From: a virus
Taxonomy: Duplodnaviria > Caudoviricetes
IMG/VR virus record: IMGVR_UViG_3300005613_000071
Coordinates: 1 to 60,342 of that record
Direction: 5' to 3' (one strand)
DNA length: 60,342 nucleotides
Each line of letters starts with the position of its first letter. Position 1 is the stretch's first letter. Below the pieces are notes generated by a model that worked only from the letters and a program-made list of their open reading frames with translations, ran no database searches and had not been told where the DNA came from. The translations under genes were made by a program, and so were the position numbers. This document shows, piece after piece, positions 4,489 through 53,462 of this stretch.

Positions 4489-4781
4489 TTGGGTTGCTCG
4501 GCTTTATCTCAGGCATCCTCTCATCCATTGCAGTTGCCTCCATCGTGTACGAGCTTCGTGCTCGTCACGAAGGCAACTACGGAAACAAGTATGAAGAGTA
4601 CGTGCCGCAGATGTATCGAATGCGCTCTGGAGGTATGACCATCAGGGAGATTGCCAAGTATACAGGCATCCCCAAGTCCACCGTTCATCGATACTTGCAA
4701 GCTGTAGACCGAGGTCTTCACAGCTCATCAGATTACGAGGTGTCTGAGGATGGCTCGATTAAAAAGAAGCTCAATGATTAA
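4485..4781 (+). CDS. HTH protein with N-terminal hydrophobic segment
   Basis: GMTIREIAKYTGIPKSTVHRYL is a classic HTH; first ~22 aa hydrophobic. Confidence 0.7.
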   Translation: MIGLLGFISGILSSIAVASIVYELRARHEGNYGNKYEEYVPQMYRMRSGGMTIREIAKYTGIPKSTVHRYLQAVDRGLHSSSDYEVSEDGSIKKKLND

Positions 4782-5562
4782 CATCCCCGAAGCCCTGCAA
4801 GAGCGGTACAACAAGCCGCACCTTTCTTACTCGTCGCTGAAGGTGGCGCTCACCGACATGGCGAGGTTCGACCAATACATGAAAGGTGAGTTGAAGTTTG
4901 AGTCACCTGCCCTCGCCTTCGGGTCTCTCTACGATATGCTCTTGTTCGAGCGTGACAAAGCCTTCGATACCTACGCAGTAGTATCAGATGATGCTATCAT
5001 CGACAGGTGCTCTGACAAGACTCGCTCCTCTAAGCGACCGAAGCTTACGAAGGAGTACAAGGATATGCAGAAGTACCTCATCGAGGAGGCAAGCAAGCAG
5101 GGTAAGATGCTGTGCTCACCCGACGACTGGAAGCAAGCGAACGAGATGATCGACAGGCTCGAACGTTGCGGCCTCGTAAGTGACATGTTGTCCTCGGGCA
5201 AGTATCAAGTGGAGTTCAACGAAATGATTGGGCCCGTAAAGGTCAAAGGCTTTCTCGATTGCCTCGGCGACGGGTTCATCGTAGACTCCAAGTCCACTAA
5301 GGCTGTCGATAAATTCCGCTACAGCGTACGTGATTTCTGCTACGACATCCAAGCTTACATCTACTGCAAGGTGTTCGGTGTCAACAAGTTCTACTGGCTT
5401 GTGCAAGAGAAGACGTACCCGTATCTACCTGCAGTAGTAGAGTGTTCAGATGAAACCCTGTTCGCTGGAGAGATGAAGTTCAATGACGCTGTTGAGCGCA
5501 TCACGAACTTCCTCGAAGGCAACAAAGCACCTGACCAAGACTATGTACAATTCAAAGTTTGA
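4774..5562 (+). CDS. PD-(D/E)xK exonuclease (RecE/DUF3799-like)
   Basis: LSYSSLK, ALAFGS, KGFLD...IVDSKST, YDIQAYIY motifs. Confidence 0.8.
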   Translation: MINIPEALQERYNKPHLSYSSLKVALTDMARFDQYMKGELKFESPALAFGSLYDMLLFERDKAFDTYAVVSDDAIIDRCSDKTRSSKRPKLTKEYKDMQKYLIEEASKQGKMLCSPDDWKQANEMIDRLERCGLVSDMLSSGKYQVEFNEMIGPVKVKGFLDCLGDGFIVDSKSTKAVDKFRYSVRDFCYDIQAYIYCKVFGVNKFYWLVQEKTYPYLPAVVECSDETLFAGEMKFNDAVERITNFLEGNKAPDQDYVQFKV

Positions 5563-47658: not shown

Positions 47659-49782
47659 TTACGAGTGCCAGTGTTTTATCTTATACTTCCTAAAGAATTC
47701 CTTCTCGTTGAGGCTTGACTTAGGCTTTTCTTGTTTTACTTTTTGAGCGGCTAGAAGGGCCAGCCCAGAGCTAATCGTCAAGTCAAACTTAGTTCTGTCA
47801 GAAATCTTGTAGCCTATCCAGTCCTCTAAAGTTCTATTGAAGTACATCTTGCCCACCTCACCCGTCTGAGGATTCTCGCCTATGTGATCGTGGATATATG
47901 TCTCTATAGCTTGAGCGTGAGACTGGATCACGTCTTGAGAGTTGGATGGTATGCCTTTTGTCTTTACGTTAACCTTAGCACTGGAAGATGACAAGTGCGC
48001 TGGTCTACCCATTAAGTATCCATCATAACCTCTTGATTCAAAGTATCTTACGATGCCGTACTTGTTGTTCTCTACGAGTAGCGGGTACCCATAATAAAAA
48101 GCGCACATCAAAACATCTTCGTAAAAGATACTGGCTAGGTCTGGACGAGACGCGTATTCAACTACAAAACAGTTACTTACGGACTCCATGTTAAACTTAT
48201 TGTAGAGGTGCATAGCACCCTTAGACCCTCTCCCATCAACCGTAGCGTCAAGGTCGTACGAGTCGACACCTCCCACGCCTACGTGGTCATTACCTGGATG
48301 TCTCTTCCCGTACTTGTCTATCACTTTGTTTCGGTTCTCTGGCGCTGGCTGCCATGACACATAGAATCTTCCGTTATGGTCTGGAGAGAATATAACCTCT
48401 TTGTCTTTCTCTTTCCACATAAAGTTGCCACGCACAACGGGGTCTGGGAATAGTTCATTGTTGTGGTCAATCTGTTGGTAGATTTTACCAACGTTGAATA
48501 GACTACCCTCGATGCTATCTCGGAAAGCTTCCTCTTCGGTAAAGGGGAACTGCCTGACAACCTCGTTAAGTTCTGAGGCGTCGCTCTTAAGACTATCTCT
48601 TTCGTTCTTTAGGTACGCCTTGCTCCCAAGCTCGATAGGTTCACCATCGATACCGCTAACGGGATTGTTCGGGTCCTCTGAAACTGGATTGCCATACTTA
48701 TCGAAAAATCCTTCGAGGGCTTCGTAAGCTGGTATAAAGATGCGATACAGCCCGCTTTTAGTCCTACCATTTGCATTGCGTTCATTAGGGTTAGAATCTT
48801 CCCAAAGGACTTTGTACTCGCTTCCGCCCTTGTCCATCGGGTTCACTGTACTACCTACAAGAGCCTTGCCAACTACCTTCTTACCGACAATAAGGCAGGT
48901 TCTCTCTATGCGCCATGCCTCTCTGATGTCCACAGGCTTCTCCCACTTGCCAGCCTCATCGAGGTACAGCATGTGTAGCTTCTCTCCATCGTATGCGTTA
49001 TTCGTCGTGTTCTTCCAGTTGATGATGGTGTTGAGCGCGTCACCTTTGTACGACGTCTTGTTGTTCTTAGTGATACGCTTCGAGGGTTCGCGGAAGGCGA
49101 GCTCCATACGGGGGTTGGTAGTTCCGTCTTGAATAGGCTTGAAAAAGAATGGGTACGACCTAAAGATCGGAACCACCTTCTTCATAAAAATATTCTCTTG
49201 AGAGTCTTTACCAGTCTTCGACTGAATCCCAAGAAGCTTGTCTTTAACTTGAGTAGCTTCGTCAACAAGTACAGAAGAACAGATATTAGTATACCCAGAG
49301 CGGCGACACTTAGTATATAGCTGACCGATACAACGGGGATCAGCTTCGCACGCAGCCATGTGTAGAAAGATTTCACGTTGGAAGGCAAGATAGTAAGGAT
49401 ACCCGATGTCGATCTTGGACCACTGGAGAAGCATGTAATGCCTTCCTGTAATGTACGTAGCGATGCCATCATTGTAAAACCAAACACCGTTGCGCCTGCG
49501 CTCAAACTCTCTCTCGATATATGAAGAAAACTTTTTTCTAAACTCCGCTGGCTTCTCGAACCACTCATCCATACTTCGTATCTTCTGCAGTTCTTCGGGC
49601 ATAGGAATGCGTTGCCACATCTGCATCGACTTTGACTTGTCATGGAAGAGTATTTCAGATCGCTTTGGTTTCTTTGGGAGTACAACAAGAAGCCCATGGA
49701 GTTCGACAACCTCTCCTTCCGTACCGTTAGGGTCGATCTTAATCCCTTTATCTTCATATCCATCTAAGTCGATTAGATTCAT
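47659..49782 (-). CDS. terL: Terminase large subunit
   Basis: KCRRSGYT (Walker A-like), LYLDEAGK (Walker B), GST motif III, GGVDSYD nuclease, LVENNK, FDLTIS. Confidence 0.9.
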   Translation of the reverse strand: MNLIDLDGYEDKGIKIDPNGTEGEVVELHGLLVVLPKKPKRSEILFHDKSKSMQMWQRIPMPEELQKIRSMDEWFEKPAEFRKKFSSYIEREFERRRNGVWFYNDGIATYITGRHYMLLQWSKIDIGYPYYLAFQREIFLHMAACEADPRCIGQLYTKCRRSGYTNICSSVLVDEATQVKDKLLGIQSKTGKDSQENIFMKKVVPIFRSYPFFFKPIQDGTTNPRMELAFREPSKRITKNNKTSYKGDALNTIINWKNTTNNAYDGEKLHMLYLDEAGKWEKPVDIREAWRIERTCLIVGKKVVGKALVGSTVNPMDKGGSEYKVLWEDSNPNERNANGRTKSGLYRIFIPAYEALEGFFDKYGNPVSEDPNNPVSGIDGEPIELGSKAYLKNERDSLKSDASELNEVVRQFPFTEEEAFRDSIEGSLFNVGKIYQQIDHNNELFPDPVVRGNFMWKEKDKEVIFSPDHNGRFYVSWQPAPENRNKVIDKYGKRHPGNDHVGVGGVDSYDLDATVDGRGSKGAMHLYNKFNMESVSNCFVVEYASRPDLASIFYEDVLMCAFYYGYPLLVENNKYGIVRYFESRGYDGYLMGRPAHLSSSSAKVNVKTKGIPSNSQDVIQSHAQAIETYIHDHIGENPQTGEVGKMYFNRTLEDWIGYKISDRTKFDLTISSGLALLAAQKVKQEKPKSSLNEKEFFRKYKIKHWHS

Positions 49783-50909
49783 GACTCACACTCTTTCTTG
49801 TATTGATCTCGTCTAGCCAACAGCTTATCGTATCCATACTCCCCCTCTTCCATCTGCTCAAGAGCTTTCTCTACGACGGAGAAGGCTACTTGCGGAGAGC
49901 CTAGCTTATACACTGCAAAAGAATACATCTCTGGGAACCAGTACTTGTAGTCAGCCATATCTACGTTCGTGTATGCCACCGACGGGTTAGCTAGCCGAGA
50001 GGCCGTCTCCCCCAAGGTGACAGCATACAAGTATCTCTCGCTTTTAATAAGCAGCTCCATGGCCCCTACTATAGGGTCTAGGCGTGACGGTGTGTGCTCC
50101 CAGGCCCTGATGAAGCTGTCGATTACTTTGTCTTGGGGTTCGCCAACATTTTGGCTGAGCTCAGCAATCCTAAGTAGCGAGATAAATACCTCGTCATCAT
50201 TACCTCGGTCTGTGATTCTTGATCTTTTTTCATATTGTTTAATTGCTTTCCTGTATTGACCTGATAGCGCATACGACTGAGCCAAGTAGTACATGCTTCT
50301 CGTATTGCTTGGGTCTCTCTTCAGATCCTTCTCAAAGATCCTTGCGTCGTTAGCATATTTCTTCTGCGCCGTCTCATCCCTCTTAAGCGGTGAGGATCTA
50401 GCGAATACGCCAGCTGTCTTTAGCATCGTACCCTCTGGGGACTCAGACTCATCTTTATGGTCGAAGCCTAGGTACTCGTGAAGAACACCGTAGTACTTAG
50501 CTTTAGACTTAGAGCTCACCATAGTGGGTCGTGAGAAGACGCCTTTGTCAGTTCTGAAGTTCATCCACACCAGGTCCTTGGGAACCTCGAAGCCTTCGAA
50601 GATGTCTTCTTGAAATGGCTCAAGGTTATCGTCAGCATCCATAAACCAAACGATATCTGCATGAGGGCGAGCGAGCTCAAGTACATAGTTGCGGTTCGTA
50701 GAGAAGTCCTTCCACTTATGTTCGTGAAGCTCCCCAGGAATGTTATGACCGTCCATAACCTCTTTGATCTTATCCATGGTGCCGTCGCTCGACCCTGTGT
50801 CGGAGATAACCCAGTAGTTGATATACGGGGCTACGCTATCGAGGCAGCGCTGGATATCCTGCTCTTCGTCTTTGACGATCATAGCAAGGCAGAAGGTAGG
50901 CTTACTCAT
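49779..50909 (-). CDS. Glycosyltransferase family 2 with TPR-like C-terminus
   Basis: CLAMIVKDE, DTGSSDGT, DFSTNRN, MDADD (DxD), GVLHE; YYLAQSY TPR helices. Confidence 0.85.
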   Translation of the reverse strand: MSKPTFCLAMIVKDEEQDIQRCLDSVAPYINYWVISDTGSSDGTMDKIKEVMDGHNIPGELHEHKWKDFSTNRNYVLELARPHADIVWFMDADDNLEPFQEDIFEGFEVPKDLVWMNFRTDKGVFSRPTMVSSKSKAKYYGVLHEYLGFDHKDESESPEGTMLKTAGVFARSSPLKRDETAQKKYANDARIFEKDLKRDPSNTRSMYYLAQSYALSGQYRKAIKQYEKRSRITDRGNDDEVFISLLRIAELSQNVGEPQDKVIDSFIRAWEHTPSRLDPIVGAMELLIKSERYLYAVTLGETASRLANPSVAYTNVDMADYKYWFPEMYSFAVYKLGSPQVAFSVVEKALEQMEEGEYGYDKLLARRDQYKKECES

Positions 50910-51097
50910 CAGAAGCTTCTTCCAAATCGATCCATACGAGCCAGCTTAGCCACCCCAGACTTAGGGTTCTTGAGCTCCATATACTTACCGCATGGACACT
51001 TGATATCGTGATACGCTCCGTCGTCACCGAACTTAATAGAGACTCCGCCCTTACTTTCTTCGTGCTTCTTGTCGCACTTGCAAATGTATTCTGCCAT
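50909..51097 (-). CDS. Small zinc-ribbon protein (FmdB-like)
   Basis: YICKC...H...KCPCGKYM. Confidence 0.65.
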   Translation of the reverse strand: MAEYICKCDKKHEESKGGVSIKFGDDGAYHDIKCPCGKYMELKNPKSGVAKLARMDRFGRSF

Positions 51098-51099
51098 GA

Positions 51100-51231
51100 T
51101 TATCGTCCTTGTGAAGCGTAGGGCTTCGTATACTTTTTTGAATTTTTATTCTTCGACTGCTTGGTCTTTGCGTGAACGCCTTTTCTTTTTACGCTCTTAG
51201 ACTTGTAGGTAGATAGTTGTTGTTTAGCCAT
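51100..51231 (-). CDS. Very basic 43-aa peptide (MAKQQLSTYKSKSVKRKGVHAKTK...YTKPYASQGR)
   Basis: Read manually; intact frame with AT-rich leader; K/R-rich. Confidence 0.6.
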   Translation of the reverse strand: MAKQQLSTYKSKSVKRKGVHAKTKQSKNKNSKKYTKPYASQGR

Positions 51232-51242
51232 TTTATTTAATT

Positions 51243-51274
51243 TGGTACCCCCGACAGGATTCGAACCTGTGACC
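51243..51274 (-). pseudogene. Orphan 3' part of a canonical tRNA (T-arm, acceptor 3' strand, CCA)
   Basis: GGTC-ACAGG-TTCGAAT-CCTGT-CGGGGGT-A-CCA with no matching 5' half nearby. Confidence 0.8.
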
Positions 51275-51313
51275 TGATGTATTTAATTTGTATCTTAGGT
51301 TCAAATATACGAA

Positions 51314-51802
51314 ATGAATCATTGCACTTACTGCGGAGCGGAAAGCAAAAACCCAAGGTTCTGCTCCAGGTCTTGCTCGGCCAGCTATACAAACAAGGCT
51401 TCACCGAAAAGAAAGTTAAAAAGAAAATGCAAGAAGTGCGATGAAGTAGTAAGAAACTATAGGTCTACACTTTGCCAGCTACACTGGGATGAACACACGG
51501 AGTGGAACAAAGAGAATAGAAGGTCAAAGACGATAGGCGAAGTCGTGGAAAAAAGATCTAATCTACATCGCAGCTCAGCATATGCTGATATAAGAAACTT
51601 TGCGCGACACGATCACAAAGAAATGCTGAAGAATCCATGCTACAACTGTGGATATGATAAGCATGTTGAACTGTGTCATATAAAAGCCATAAGCGAGTTC
51701 ACGTTAGAAGCAACAATCAACGAGGTTAACGCTGCCTCTAACGTGATTCAACTCTGCCCTAACTGCCATTGGGAATTTGACAACGGCGTGTTAGAATTGT
51801 AG
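51314..51802 (+). CDS. HNH homing endonuclease with N-terminal zinc fingers
   Basis: CTYC, FCSRSC, CKKC; CYNCGY...ELCHIK...N...NVIQLCPNCH; antisense to the surrounding operon. Confidence 0.85.
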   Translation: MNHCTYCGAESKNPRFCSRSCSASYTNKASPKRKLKRKCKKCDEVVRNYRSTLCQLHWDEHTEWNKENRRSKTIGEVVEKRSNLHRSSAYADIRNFARHDHKEMLKNPCYNCGYDKHVELCHIKAISEFTLEATINEVNAASNVIQLCPNCHWEFDNGVLEL

Positions 51803-51873
51803 ACGGGGTGGGACTCCAACCCACATATGCCAATTTAGAAGATTGGTGCATTATGCTGTTATGCTACCCGTCC
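51800..51873 (-). tRNA. tRNA-Arg (anticodon TCT), divergent
   Basis: Acceptor GGACGGG/CCCGTCT; D-stem GCAT/ATGC; anticodon arm CCAAT-CTTCTAA-ATTGG; T-arm GTGGG-TTGGAGT-CCCAC; no encoded CCA. Confidence 0.75.
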
Positions 51874-51880
51874 ATATGGT

Positions 51881-51959
51881 TGTCGGCGAGGTGGGGCTTG
51901 AACCCACATGTGACCTATTACTCTTTCTACAAGGTATAAGCTTGAGGAGATACTCGCCG
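51881..51959 (-). ncRNA. Atypical tRNA-like RNA lacking a normal D-arm
   Basis: Acceptor CGGCGAG/CTCGCCG; T-arm GTGGG-TTCAAGC-CCCAC; CAAG-CTTATAC-CTTG hairpin. Confidence 0.6.
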
Positions 51960-52121
51960 TTATTCTTCGTCCCTCTCCTCGTGAGTGCTTGTCTGGTTTT
52001 CTATCCAGTTTACGTAAGCCTCTATACCTTCTTGAGTAATCGTGATGTCATCCCACCACTCATTTTGAGAATCGCTCTGCGAATCCTCCTGAGTAGTCTT
52101 TTTCTTCTTCGATTTCTCCAT
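51960..52121 (-). CDS. Possible small hypothetical protein (53 aa, MEKSKKKKTTQ...)
   Basis: Read manually; overlaps upstream gene in +1 frame. Confidence 0.3.
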   Translation of the reverse strand: MEKSKKKKTTQEDSQSDSQNEWWDDITITQEGIEAYVNWIENQTSTHEERDEE

Positions 52122-52386
52122 TCTCTTTTAATTCTTTTACCATCTGTTCTAGCTTTTGTCGCTCTATAATTAACTCCTTGCAGTCTATTGCTGTCTGCTT
52201 AATCGACTGAAGCTCTGCTTTACGTGCCGAGCCGCCAGCTTCTGGATCTACAGGCCTTCTAACTTCATCTATCATATTGTCGATAGCTACCTGCATGCTG
52301 TCCATCAGCCTCTCCGCTGCATCAACTGTCTTGAACTTCGACGTAGAGGAATCGGTCTTCGGGGATGCGGATATATTCTTTGCCAT
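52060..52386 (-). CDS. Helical protein, candidate terminase small subunit
   Basis: Coiled-coil protein upstream of terL block ending GGFAERFSK; function inferred from position only. Confidence 0.5.
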   Translation of the reverse strand: MAKNISASPKTDSSTSKFKTVDAAERLMDSMQVAIDNMIDEVRRPVDPEAGGSARKAELQSIKQTAIDCKELIIERQKLEQMVKELKENGEIEEEKDYSGGFAERFSK

Positions 52387-52927
52387 CGATCTTAAATCTA
52401 TAGTCTATATTTTTCTCAAAACCTACGACATCGCCAACCTTAAGGCCCATGCGCTTTGTCTCTTCGCTTTCGAACGCGAGCTTAGCTTTCGTAGTAGGCT
52501 TCTCTTTGAGCTCTACAGTTACCAGGCCAGACTTACCCTCCTTGATGCTCTCTTTCTCTTCCTCTATAGGCGACAAGATCGCCCACCCACCTAGCGGGCG
52601 TACCTCCCCGTCTTTCTTACTCTTGTATGCTATAGCTTGGTTGCTGATAGCGTGCTCTTCGTTGTAGCGCACCAAGAAGTTGTTCTCTATACCAGTCAGT
52701 GGCTGACCCTCATTGAGGACCACCAGGTGGTGGAAGTACAGCGTATCGCCAACTTCAACACCAGTGTCGTACTTAAAGGGTGTGGCCACCACAGGAGCTT
52801 CATTCTTCCTGAGGTCGAACTCTCGAAAGCGATTGTCGACATACAGCTCTAGACCACCAGCAGTAGTCACTGTGTCTTCAATCTGCTTGTCTAGTTCTAT
52901 GACAAACAAATCAAATGTTCTCATCAT
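52322..52927 (-). CDS. GroES-like co-chaperonin (two tandem Cpn10-like domains)
   Basis: TTAGGLEL...GVEVGDTLYF and KSGLV...GLKVGDVVGF...IDGKEY. Confidence 0.75.
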   Translation of the reverse strand: MMRTFDLFVIELDKQIEDTVTTAGGLELYVDNRFREFDLRKNEAPVVATPFKYDTGVEVGDTLYFHHLVVLNEGQPLTGIENNFLVRYNEEHAISNQAIAYKSKKDGEVRPLGGWAILSPIEEEKESIKEGKSGLVTVELKEKPTTKAKLAFESEETKRMGLKVGDVVGFEKNIDYRFKIDGKEYIRIPEDRFLYVEVQDS

Positions 52928-53166
52928 TAAAAATTCAAGTCGTATTCAATTATCACGGGCATACCATTGACGCTCTTCCATAGGGCGTTTTCGCCATCTG
53001 TGTTCACGTATATGAGATACCGCGTTGATGCAAATTTATGAAGAAATTCTGTATCTAGCACGATAGCAGAAACATTTCCTTCGCCAGCTCTCATGCCGAC
53101 ATAATAGGCCATCCCGTTCTTAGGGTCTTGGCCAATAATAATTTTTCTTACGTATCCTTCTTCCAT
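52927..53166 (-). CDS. Hypothetical protein
   Basis: VRKIIIG...MAYYVG...WK...MPVIIEYDLNF; coupled to GroES-like gene. Confidence 0.7.
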   Translation of the reverse strand: MEEGYVRKIIIGQDPKNGMAYYVGMRAGEGNVSAIVLDTEFLHKFASTRYLIYVNTDGENALWKSVNGMPVIIEYDLNF

Positions 53167-53462
53167 TAGTTTAGAGATATACCGAGATCTCCCAGCATAT
53201 CCCCCAGGCTGTCGTCTTCATCAGAGTAGGTGCTCTTCATAACGTCTATGACGAGATCGAGCTCCTCCCATGAATCTAGATTGTAGCTGAAGAGAGACTT
53301 CATCTCTACTGATTCATCTTCGGTCGATTCAATTTCATCCATGAGTCCTACTACTATAGCTGACATCACCCTGTCCTCATATCCTCTTGACTTAACAAAG
53401 TTCTCGATTTCGAGTACCTTAGCGTAAAGCTCAGACAAGAATTCCACGTCTTCGTAGTTCAT
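53166..53462 (-). CDS. Acidic hypothetical protein
   Basis: Coupled ORF; TATCTTAG promoter-like box upstream. Confidence 0.7.
   Translation of the reverse strand: MNYEDVEFLSELYAKVLEIENFVKSRGYEDRVMSAIVVGLMDEIESTEDESVEMKSLFSYNLDSWEELDLVIDVMKSTYSDEDDSLGDMLGDLGISLN

Follow-up and report, generated by a model that had tools for sequence, protein, structure and literature searches.

Here, we describe a short cassette in the genome of an uncultured marine virus (IMG/VR record IMGVR_UViG_3300005613_000071; the window, by which we mean the complete record of 60,342 bases, estimated to be 99% complete), in which an HNH endonuclease gene lies between a whole transfer RNA (tRNA) gene and the 3′ piece of another. 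The cassette is situated between a GroES-like gene and the terminase module, and the surrounding genes are all on the minus strand. Read along that strand, the order is a tRNA-like gene (called X here), a 9-nucleotide (nt) spacer, a complete but divergent tRNA-Arg(TCT) gene (Arg-prime), the HNH gene, which is antisense to the tRNAs and to all flanking genes, a 39-nt spacer and a 32-nt tRNA tail (the remnant), downstream of which follow two small open reading frames (ORFs) of 43 and 62 codons (ORF43 and ORF62), a GT2/TPR gene and the terminase (Table 1). The tRNA tail, the antisense HNH gene, the intact tRNA-Arg(TCT) and the mismatch between the two acceptor stems were all located as the original prediction, made from the letters of this DNA, had placed them; X, a second tRNA-like gene, had been overlooked.

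Table 1. Features of the tRNA-Arg locus and its neighbours, with positions in the window
Feature	Position	Strand	Basis or remark
tRNA-like gene X	51883..51959	-	Rfam tRNA 28.5 bits
Arg-prime, complete tRNA-Arg(TCT), putative replacement copy	51799..51873	-	ARAGORN; Rfam 57.4 bits
HNH endonuclease gene, intact, 162 amino acids	51314..51802	+	Pfam HNH_2 32.1 bits; phrog_1271
Spacer, HNH start to remnant	51275..51313	-	read from sequence; 39 nt
Presumed canonical tRNA-Arg(TCT) 3′ remnant, about nt 45-76	51243..51274	-	identity to relatives' tRNA 3′ end
ORF43, small lysine-rich ORF between remnant and ORF62	51100..51231	-	no Pfam or PHROG family
ORF62, small Cys-rich ORF, right-hand anchor of the locus	50909..51097	-	directly after tRNA-Arg in most relatives
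GT2 plus TPR gene, between ORF62 and terminase	49779-50909	-	present in some relatives, absent in others
201-amino-acid protein, upstream of the tRNA spot	52322-52927	-	PHROG co-chaperonin GroES phrog_13932, E 6e-43

The remnant is made up of four variable-loop bases, a T-arm (ACAGG/TTCGAAT/CCTGT), the acceptor 3′ strand CGGGGGT, an A and CCA, and the Rfam tRNA profile matches it in part only (15.3 bits, model positions 43-63). The intact tRNA-Arg of the related loci L003, L139-L142 and L144-L148 ends in the same 30 bases with which the remnant starts, and one additional C in the window gives the remnant its CCA end. Because those 30 bases are identical to the end of an intact tRNA-Arg(TCT) at the same locus, the remnant is no chance look-alike, and judging from this identity we take it to be the 3′ part (nt 45-76) of a tRNA-Arg(TCT) formerly carried by this phage lineage. 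As it is undecayed over the stretch held in common with the intact gene, the event was probably recent. No tRNA-like 5′ half matching the remnant was found within 1.6 kb; the only candidate in the window, a single 7-mer, lies inside a coding region and is not tRNA-like, and was rejected. The original prediction had also raised the case that such a piece might be an attP-type (phage attachment site) core matching a host tRNA; it would then derive from integration or serve for it. A tRNA's 3′ part is frequent cargo of integrative elements, and the 32-mer does occur in seven bacterial contigs from metagenome-assembled genomes; however, the seven are spread across Thermotogae, Fidelibacterota, Latescibacterota and Peregrinibacteria, a search of the 99%-complete record for a tyrosine or serine recombinase (PF00589, PF00239) found none, and relatives have a whole tRNA gene at the very same spot, all of which makes an attachment core barely conceivable.

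Arg-prime is the single tRNA called by ARAGORN, with its anticodon tct at position 35, and the full Rfam tRNA model (positions 1-71) aligns to it at 51800-51873, with a score of 57.4 bits against a gathering score of 29. It has the acceptor, D, anticodon and T arms of a proper cloverleaf. Its elbow, as the original prediction had noted, is non-canonical: the D-loop AACAGCATA has G18 C19 in place of GG and the T-loop TTGGAGT has G56, departing from the usual G18 G19 and T54 T55 C56. Taken together, the changes G19 to C19 and C56 to G56 would preserve a Watson-Crick 19:56 pair. The acceptor stem is GGACGGG/CCCGTCT, and the remnant's orphan strand CGGGGGT does not pair with its 5′ strand; the HNH stop codon TAG (51800-51802) overlaps the 3′ end of the gene. 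Arg-prime carries A20, C35 and A73, which we take to be identity elements for arginyl-tRNA synthetase. A tRNA-Arg(UCU) is likely to be needed by this virus, since AGA and AGG account for 369 of 699 Arg codons in 30 long ORFs, and by its sequence Arg-prime would be processed, charged and used as a tRNA.

The HNH protein matches Pfam HNH_2 (PF13391; 32.1 bits against a cut-off of 21; residues 110-159) and phrog_1271, annotated 'HNH endonuclease' (E 9e-9). In an alignment of 28 family sequences it retains all 23 invariant columns, among them C4, C7, C17, C21, C109, C112, H117, H122, N139, N143, C148, C151 and H152, and the conserved features comprise two N-terminal Cys pairs, one CxxC and a CxxCH motif. 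By analogy, H122, N143 and H152 would be catalytic, and C109/C112 and C148/C151 would bind zinc. The AlphaFold2 model has a mean predicted local distance difference test score (pLDDT) of 96.1, and its top Foldseek matches in the PDB are HNH nucleases (Cap5, T5 SciA, Gme HNH nickase, McrA and TagI), weak ones, all at E 0.1 or above and with query-normalised template modelling scores of 0.31 or below. No close solved structure was found in the PDB by Foldseek or by phmmer, whose best match has an E of 0.11.

To place this arrangement in context, we compared it with relatives at the same locus. Scanning IMG/VR with the GT protein gave five loci besides the window's own, three of which reach the spot (L003, L005 and L006); each has one canonical tRNA-Arg(tct) directly upstream of ORF62, and L003 also has X before the tRNA. 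Scanning metagenomes with the GroES-like protein gave 80 related loci, 49 of them with a called tRNA-Arg(tct). Two of these 49 (L137 and L138) are the window genotype, 100% identical and with both Arg-prime and the HNH gene present. The TTGGAGT loop is found in none of the other 47, whose T-loops are canonical, and 45 of the 47 share the variable-loop and T-arm word of the remnant, GGTCACAGGTTCGA[AG]TCCTGTC. The HNH gene is absent from all 78 non-window metagenome loci (tblastn, E 1e-4 or better). In the closest relatives (L003, L139-L142, L144 and L146, with a TerL N-terminus 92-93% identical to that of the window), the order is X, 4 nt, a tRNA ending in the remnant's first 30 nt, about 14 nt, and ORF62. 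HNH-less relatives with one intact tRNA ending in GGGGGTA, as the original prediction expected, thus exist, and the anticodon of that tRNA is TCT, the same as in the replacement. Taking both scans together, the HNH gene occurs only in the window, L001/L009, L137 and L138, and is absent from L003, L005, L006, L094, L115 and L130, a presence/absence polymorphism among syntenic relatives of the kind by which free-standing homing endonucleases are recognised.

Among the HNH-less relatives (47 metagenome loci, three IMG/VR loci and three contigs), none holds the fragment and the divergent tRNA together, an outcome that the original prediction had set against its own reading. This comparison also bears on whether an ancestor had Arg-prime and the canonical gene in tandem, the HNH gene having landed between the two and a deletion having taken the 5′ part of the second, so that nothing was brought by the element. 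Phage arrays do hold isoacceptor duplicates, and L010 has two adjacent tRNA-Arg(acg) genes; yet a second tRNA-Arg(tct) and Arg-prime itself are each found in 0 of the 47 non-window relatives, the contigs that do have Arg-prime contain neither a canonical copy nor a remnant, and the left junction, immediately after X, is common to the window and L115. A tandem ancestor is therefore an improbable source of the arrangement.

The genotype of the window is widespread, with 18 sequencing runs holding at least half of the sampled words and 20 runs, from 13 studies, holding any part. In three further runs from three studies, contigs bridge ORF43, the remnant and the HNH gene with 0-1 differences, and one of these continues through Arg-prime into X, also with 0-1 differences. 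In the same runs, there are also contigs in which the 32-mer is joined to canonical tRNA-Arg sequence; these samples thus contain both alleles. In four runs, no contig was found to join across the cassette, and hence no HNH-less form of the same genome. Phage GenBank yielded no useful relatives: blastn with 50000-53200 returned short, tRNA-sized matches only (six records), and tblastn with the HNH protein three distant matches (30-44% identity).

The two junctions of the cassette differ in kind. On the left, the window matches the canonical relatives through X plus 12 nt and then passes into Arg-prime, at the point shared with L115. On the right, homology to the canonical gene begins at nt 45, placing the break at nt 44/45, and the flank found downstream of tRNA-Arg, ACAAATTAAATA, is present twice, once after the remnant and a second time in the spacer (51280-51291). 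This flank is common to all relatives after tRNA-Arg, following the intact tRNA-Arg in L003 and L140 and Arg-prime in L094. Its duplication is as expected if donor DNA had been joined without homology to a break inside the canonical gene. As a separate observation, the spacer also contains an inverted T-loop core, AGGTTCAAA, on the plus strand (51297-51305), and similar inverted words, TCGAACCT, are present in the spacers of L038 and L054, where the core is AGGTTCGAC. Three independent cassettes thus have an inverted T-loop word at 25-35 nt from their orphan T-arm, and a scar of fold-back repair, half a target site or a regulatory site are conceivable explanations.

From this comparison, it appears probable that positions 51275-51873 were left by the homing of a free-standing HNH endonuclease, belonging to a family that resides in or beside phage tRNA-Arg(UCU) genes, and that the canonical gene was replaced by Arg-prime. 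The ancestor would have had one canonical tRNA-Arg(UCU) between X and the small ORFs upstream of the terminase, and the donor an HNH gene lying tail to tail with the divergent, presumably uncut Arg-prime. In a mixed infection, the HNH enzyme would cut the canonical gene between the anticodon loop and the T-stem, and in the repair that followed, Arg-prime would be copied from the donor along with the HNH gene and part of the flank downstream of it; at its right-hand end, the new strand may have been joined illegitimately to a break end that had escaped resection. The old gene would in this way have lost nt 1-44 to the replacement, with nt 45-76 persisting as a dead tail, while decoding of AGA and AGG would have been kept through Arg-prime, such that the element could be tolerated though it is no intron. 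That the HNH protein makes the cut, the position of that cut, the resistance of Arg-prime and the repair pathway are points that we infer from the arrangement of the sequences.

The wider HNH family offers parallels. Homologues were found at 71 IMG/VR loci (35-57% identity), with a tRNA-Arg(TCT) no more than 110 nt away in at least 39 (21 ARAGORN calls and 18 genes of the X build, described below) and some tRNA within that distance in 57. Adjacency to a conserved gene of target type is characteristic of homing endonucleases, and the tRNA would be the target here. We then looked for split tRNAs, by taking T-arm hairpins outside called tRNAs and seeking the matching acceptor strand. In L013, L020, L021, L028, L038, L049, L054 and probably L045, an orphan T-arm has its counterpart, a matching 5′ acceptor strand with D-arm sequence, 630-830 nt upstream, and between the halves lie the HNH gene and a complete substitute tRNA, the anticodon of which is TCT except in L049. 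In L010-L012, L014, L017, L024 and L025, as in the window, the 3′ piece alone was found. In L026, L027 and L078, the antisense HNH gene lies within an intervening sequence that splits tRNA-Arg(TCT) at nt 34/35, and L027 and L078 have group I matches in Rfam below threshold (32.5 and 28 bits against a gathering score of 50); at gathering thresholds, Rfam returned tRNAs only in 20 homologue loci. In a quick tree of the HNH proteins, the window falls in a clade of 17 rows (Shimodaira-Hasegawa-like approximate likelihood ratio test, 87), consisting of 13 loci with an antisense HNH gene and a substitute at its stop codon, three intron loci and one other, the forms being interleaved. Because the substitute-carrying layout recurs with homologous HNH genes, and does so in phages unrelated to this one, it represents a recurrent way of life of this nuclease family and no one-off. 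Separately, in L010, L034, L043 and L057 the HNH proteins bear C-terminal extensions that are antisense translations of the adjoining tRNA gene (e.g. ...EGFEP...), so these ORFs ran on into the tRNA.

The nesting of intron-borne relatives within the window's own HNH clade, together with the split of L028 at nt 34/37, the intron site, might suggest that the canonical tRNA-Arg(TCT) received the HNH gene inside a group I intron, comparable to L026, L027 and L078, that the core and 5′ exon then decayed and that Arg-prime was acquired separately. At this locus, however, the Intron_gpI profile finds nothing at E up to 10 in 51000-52200, and the window has no 5′ exon either, leaving the HNH gene without the two features that would mark it as encoded by a group I intron. 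Moreover, the remnant begins at nt 45, outside the anticodon loop, only 39 nt separate it from the HNH start, and Arg-prime abuts the HNH stop exactly as it does in the non-intron relatives. We regard an intron origin as very improbable.

Arg-prime is also found apart from the nuclease. Its T-arm word GGGTTGGAGTCCCAC, with G at position 56, is present at 57 IMG/VR loci (L080-L136), and three contigs (L094, L115 and L130) have Arg-prime at the same genomic position as their sole tRNA-Arg, without HNH gene or remnant. The L094 copy is identical to that of the window. For L115 and L130, the difference amounts to 5-6 nt; it includes a compensatory change of C27:G43 to T27:A43, which speaks for a functional tRNA. 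Arg-prime in L115 is followed by 14 nt that agree, at 13 of 14 positions, with the final four codons of the HNH gene plus its stop, and the matched codons belong to the C-terminus conserved in the family (DNG-x-L-x-L); we read this, from the match, as the footprint of a deleted HNH gene. In a tree of the TerL N-terminus, built without L094 and L130 because of their split terminase, the window lies inside a clade of canonical-tRNA phages and L115 in another deep clade (77% identity), likewise among canonical-tRNA phages. Arg-prime requires at least two changes on this tree, and none of 200 bootstrap trees allows one, so it has moved between lineages. Since it is the sole tRNA-Arg of three HNH-less contigs, Arg-prime is an allele that circulates in this phage group and not cargo of the HNH gene alone; it is linked to the HNH gene or its footprint in two of three Arg-prime lineages, against 0 of 47 loci with the usual tRNA-Arg. 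Intronless homing with a substitute tRNA, as originally predicted, thus draws support from the relatives and from the recurring layout, and has to be amended in that the substitute is not exclusive to HNH cassettes.

Two further candidate mobile elements were seen in these contigs and in other relatives. In L094 (892-3993, minus strand) and L130, the terminase has an in-frame insertion of about 326 amino acids after the LYLDE motif, which the window does not have; from its Cys start and LAGLIDADG-like words, an intein containing a homing endonuclease is the probable identity. Another HNH family, unrelated to the first (about 113 amino acids; phrog_2255, E 4e-27), on the strand of the tRNAs, is present in L094 (about 4535-4890, minus strand), L115 (7182-7523, minus strand), L130, L190, L197 and L159, either just upstream of X or between tRNA-Met and tRNA-Arg, so that at least two nuclease families visit the tRNA spot.

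That Arg-prime exists without the HNH gene is one of the points in favour of a different account, in which Arg-prime and canonical lineages underwent illegitimate recombination and the HNH gene was a passenger at the boundary, not targeting tRNA-Arg. The genomes are mosaic here, with the GT gene, ORF43 and ORF62 coming and going; nuclease genes are known at exchange boundaries, as described in part of PMC10448857; and the duplicated flank ACAAATTAAATA does indicate a misaligned join. Chance placement of a passenger nonetheless leaves unexplained the 39 or more of 71 homologues that lie within 110 nt of a tRNA-Arg(TCT), the repeated finding of an HNH gene with a substitute between the halves of a broken tRNA, and the HNH relatives inside introns of tRNA-Arg(TCT). 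We consider the passenger account unlikely, though it is the strongest of the alternatives.

The non-canonical elbow of Arg-prime raises the question of whether T-loops depart from the norm beside the nuclease more generally. For this, we compared 311 distinct tRNAs called by ARAGORN at 70 homologue loci, leaving out the window copy. T-loops departing from TTC[GA]A are found in 9 of 17 HNH-adjacent tRNA-Arg(tct) genes and 32 of 294 others (Fisher p 6e-5, a value that flatters the case, as related sequences are not independent), and TTG[GA] loops in 3 of 17 and 1 of 294, respectively. The tRNAs with TTGGAAT in L016, L021 and L031 also have GC for GG in the D-loop, like that of the window, and in L021 the substitute and the broken gene have the same T-stem with a different loop. 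The exchange is not confined to arginine: a tRNA was called at the site in 48 of the 57 loci with GGGTTGGAGTCCCAC, and 39 of these 48 are tRNA-Ser(tga), mostly with GC for GG in the D-loop, the remainder including Arg(cct), Ala and Leu. Being common in tRNA-Ser(tga) and others that have no HNH gene, the 19:56 swap is a wider habit of phage tRNAs.

A possible reason for such loops is suggested by T4 SegB, a free-standing GIY-YIG homing endonuclease that, as described in parts of PMC2330249, cleaves tRNA genes in phages without segB and recognises GGTTCRANTCC, a DNA motif of the T-loop, with a matching motif given in part of PMC13096335. By analogy, a nuclease with SegB-like reading of the T-loop would make the C56G allele a natural escape. 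On a larger scale, selfish nucleases that read tRNA-gene DNA, above all the T-loop, might drive the structural diversification of phage tRNAs, with the C19:G56 swap as a compensated escape and other odd T-loops, perhaps also the D-arm of X, as uncuttable alleles; a nuclease gene with an uncuttable spare would then be a third general way of occupying a needed gene, and the spare could become fixed after loss of the nuclease (L115, L094 and L130). We offer this generalisation as speculative, and hold it to be possible rather than probable.

Several points weigh against homing of the HNH gene into the canonical tRNA-Arg. The link between the HNH gene and the break in the tRNA is circumstantial, coming as it does from their arrangement; no 5′ fragment of the old gene was found in the window, so a replacement is seen and an insertion is not seen directly; and the direction of change rests on parsimony across the sampled relatives. 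The closest HNH relative in the IMG/VR scan has 57% identity, and so no donor was identified. L094 and L130 have no trace of the HNH gene, with Arg-prime as their only tRNA-Arg, and the Arg-prime allele can thus exist, and perhaps spread, on its own. As for the elbow, 8 of the 17 HNH-adjacent tRNA-Arg(tct) genes have ordinary T-loops, no HNH gene of this family was found near GGGTTGGAGTCCCAC swap tRNAs such as tRNA-Ser(tga), and if the T-loop alone were the target, the remnant, with its perfect canonical T-arm, would still be cut.

Homing into the canonical gene, which we continue to favour, has several known counterparts. As with SegB in T4/T6, a nuclease gene is found among phage tRNA genes and is missing from otherwise similar relatives. 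SegB for its part is described as being inherited with flanking tRNA markers and as having the T-loop motif within its recognition sequence; the enzyme of the window belongs to a different family, HNH instead of GIY-YIG. The portions of the SegB papers considered here (PMC2330249; PMC13096335) deal with preferential inheritance and with the amplification of segments; they report neither replacement by an allele of divergent structure nor a broken tRNA with a full same-anticodon substitute beside the nuclease gene. Intronless homing in general is established for T4 SegE, SegF, SegG and MobE (PMC2330249 and PMC2790892, in the parts cited). In the known cases, the nuclease gene adjoins its target variant, cleavage falls on the sensitive allele in a co-infecting phage and repair co-converts the flanks, and we liken the window to this; unlike those cases, in which the target stays whole and homology extends on both sides, the gene in the window is truncated, a spare would take over and one junction appears illegitimate.

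Nucleases borne by introns of tRNA genes are a further counterpart, exemplified by the group I intron endonuclease in tRNA-fMet's anticodon region (Bonocora and Shub 2001, as cited in part of PMC3984707). Common to both are specificity for tRNA genes, presumed for the HNH family, and insertion in the anticodon loop, the latter in those relatives of the window's HNH gene that lie at nt 34/35 of tRNA-Arg(TCT); in contrast, the window has no intron core, its HNH gene is antisense, and a second gene, not splicing, would meet the cost. In 'fractured genes', the two halves of a split-intein gene are separated by the gene for a free-standing endonuclease (part of PMC2677866). Here too, a homing endonuclease gene stands between pieces of its host gene without a contiguous intron or intein, yet where protein trans-splicing is described as restoring function in the fractured genes, the halves at tRNA loci such as this one appear dead and a spare gene would supply the function. 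Lastly, integrase-driven islands insert into tRNA genes and carry a tRNA 3′ end. They share with the window a displaced tRNA 3′ piece beside the insert and element-brought sequence by which function is, or in the window would be, kept; unlike them, the window has no recombinase, and what would be supplied is a whole tRNA with a different acceptor stem instead of a matching 3′ end.

Free-standing homing endonucleases in phage tRNA clusters, intronless homing and tRNA intron endonucleases are thus established. Among the titles, abstract openings and paper passages covered, we found neither a homing endonuclease gene described as moving together with a whole replacement for the tRNA gene that it breaks, nor a description of the 19:56 swap in phage tRNAs. 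What we add is a dense set of relatives, within one phage group, with empty, occupied and nuclease-lost states, the putative trace of the HNH gene in L115, and the exchange at the elbow together with its statistics. To our knowledge, homing endonucleases have been thought to persist in needed genes only by way of self-splicing introns or inteins, or at intergenic sites. The comparison of this locus with its parallels lends good support to another route, by which an element would break a gene and supply a working spare of the same function. Three states of such a cycle would be represented: sites that are empty and have the canonical tRNA, sites that are occupied and keep a dead remnant, and sites at which the spare tRNA remains after deletion of the nuclease. 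The nuclease would thereby cause a lasting allele replacement in a translation gene, a possible reason why phage tRNAs often look odd to tRNA finders. Such loci may have practical use as well, as they offer putative natural pairs of target and immune alleles for mapping the specificity of a compact HNH enzyme of 160 residues.

Around the cassette, ORF43 follows tRNA-Arg in the Arg-prime contigs (L094 and L115 among them) and in L201, L204 and L205, is missing from this spot in the closest canonical-tRNA relatives and lies elsewhere in the genome in others (e.g. L152 and L156), so it seems to move around. A promoter and terminator scan of 50900-52400 gave four promoter-like sites (2.5 expected) and two terminator-like sites (1.1 expected), none usable for the HNH gene. 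Contigs from RNA libraries at this locus consist of tRNA-sized pieces and one stretch of 247 nt (51993-52239).

The tRNA-like gene X scores just below the 29-bit Rfam threshold (28.5 bits, E 0.0016), with its D-arm region unaligned. Acceptor stem and T-arm are present, as is an anticodon hairpin, whose loop is CTTATAC (anticodon TAT, Ile-like; ATA makes up 21.9% of the window's Ile codons). An ordinary D-arm is lacking, and a 3-base-pair (bp) helix (CTC/GAG) surrounds the anticodon hairpin, with a GG-bearing loop behind it. X is conserved in L003, L115 and L139-L148, where it immediately precedes tRNA-Arg and shows a compensatory T-stem change. Across 14 genes of this build, 98.2% of cells pair, the shuffled value being 62.7%; in the 3-bp helix, pairing is 100% and three of three pairs covary. 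The order of parts is acceptor stem, TA, 3-bp helix, TAAT-GG-type loop, T-arm and acceptor, a build mostly missed by ARAGORN; the impression is that the D-stem's partner strand has shifted, together with the GG loop, to a position after the anticodon arm. The same build is present in L010, L017, L019, L020, L022, L029, L033, L035, L037, L042, L050, L067 and L141; copies with anticodon TCT are the substitute tRNA beside HNH homologues, and the build matches records of crAss-like phages at 81-83%.

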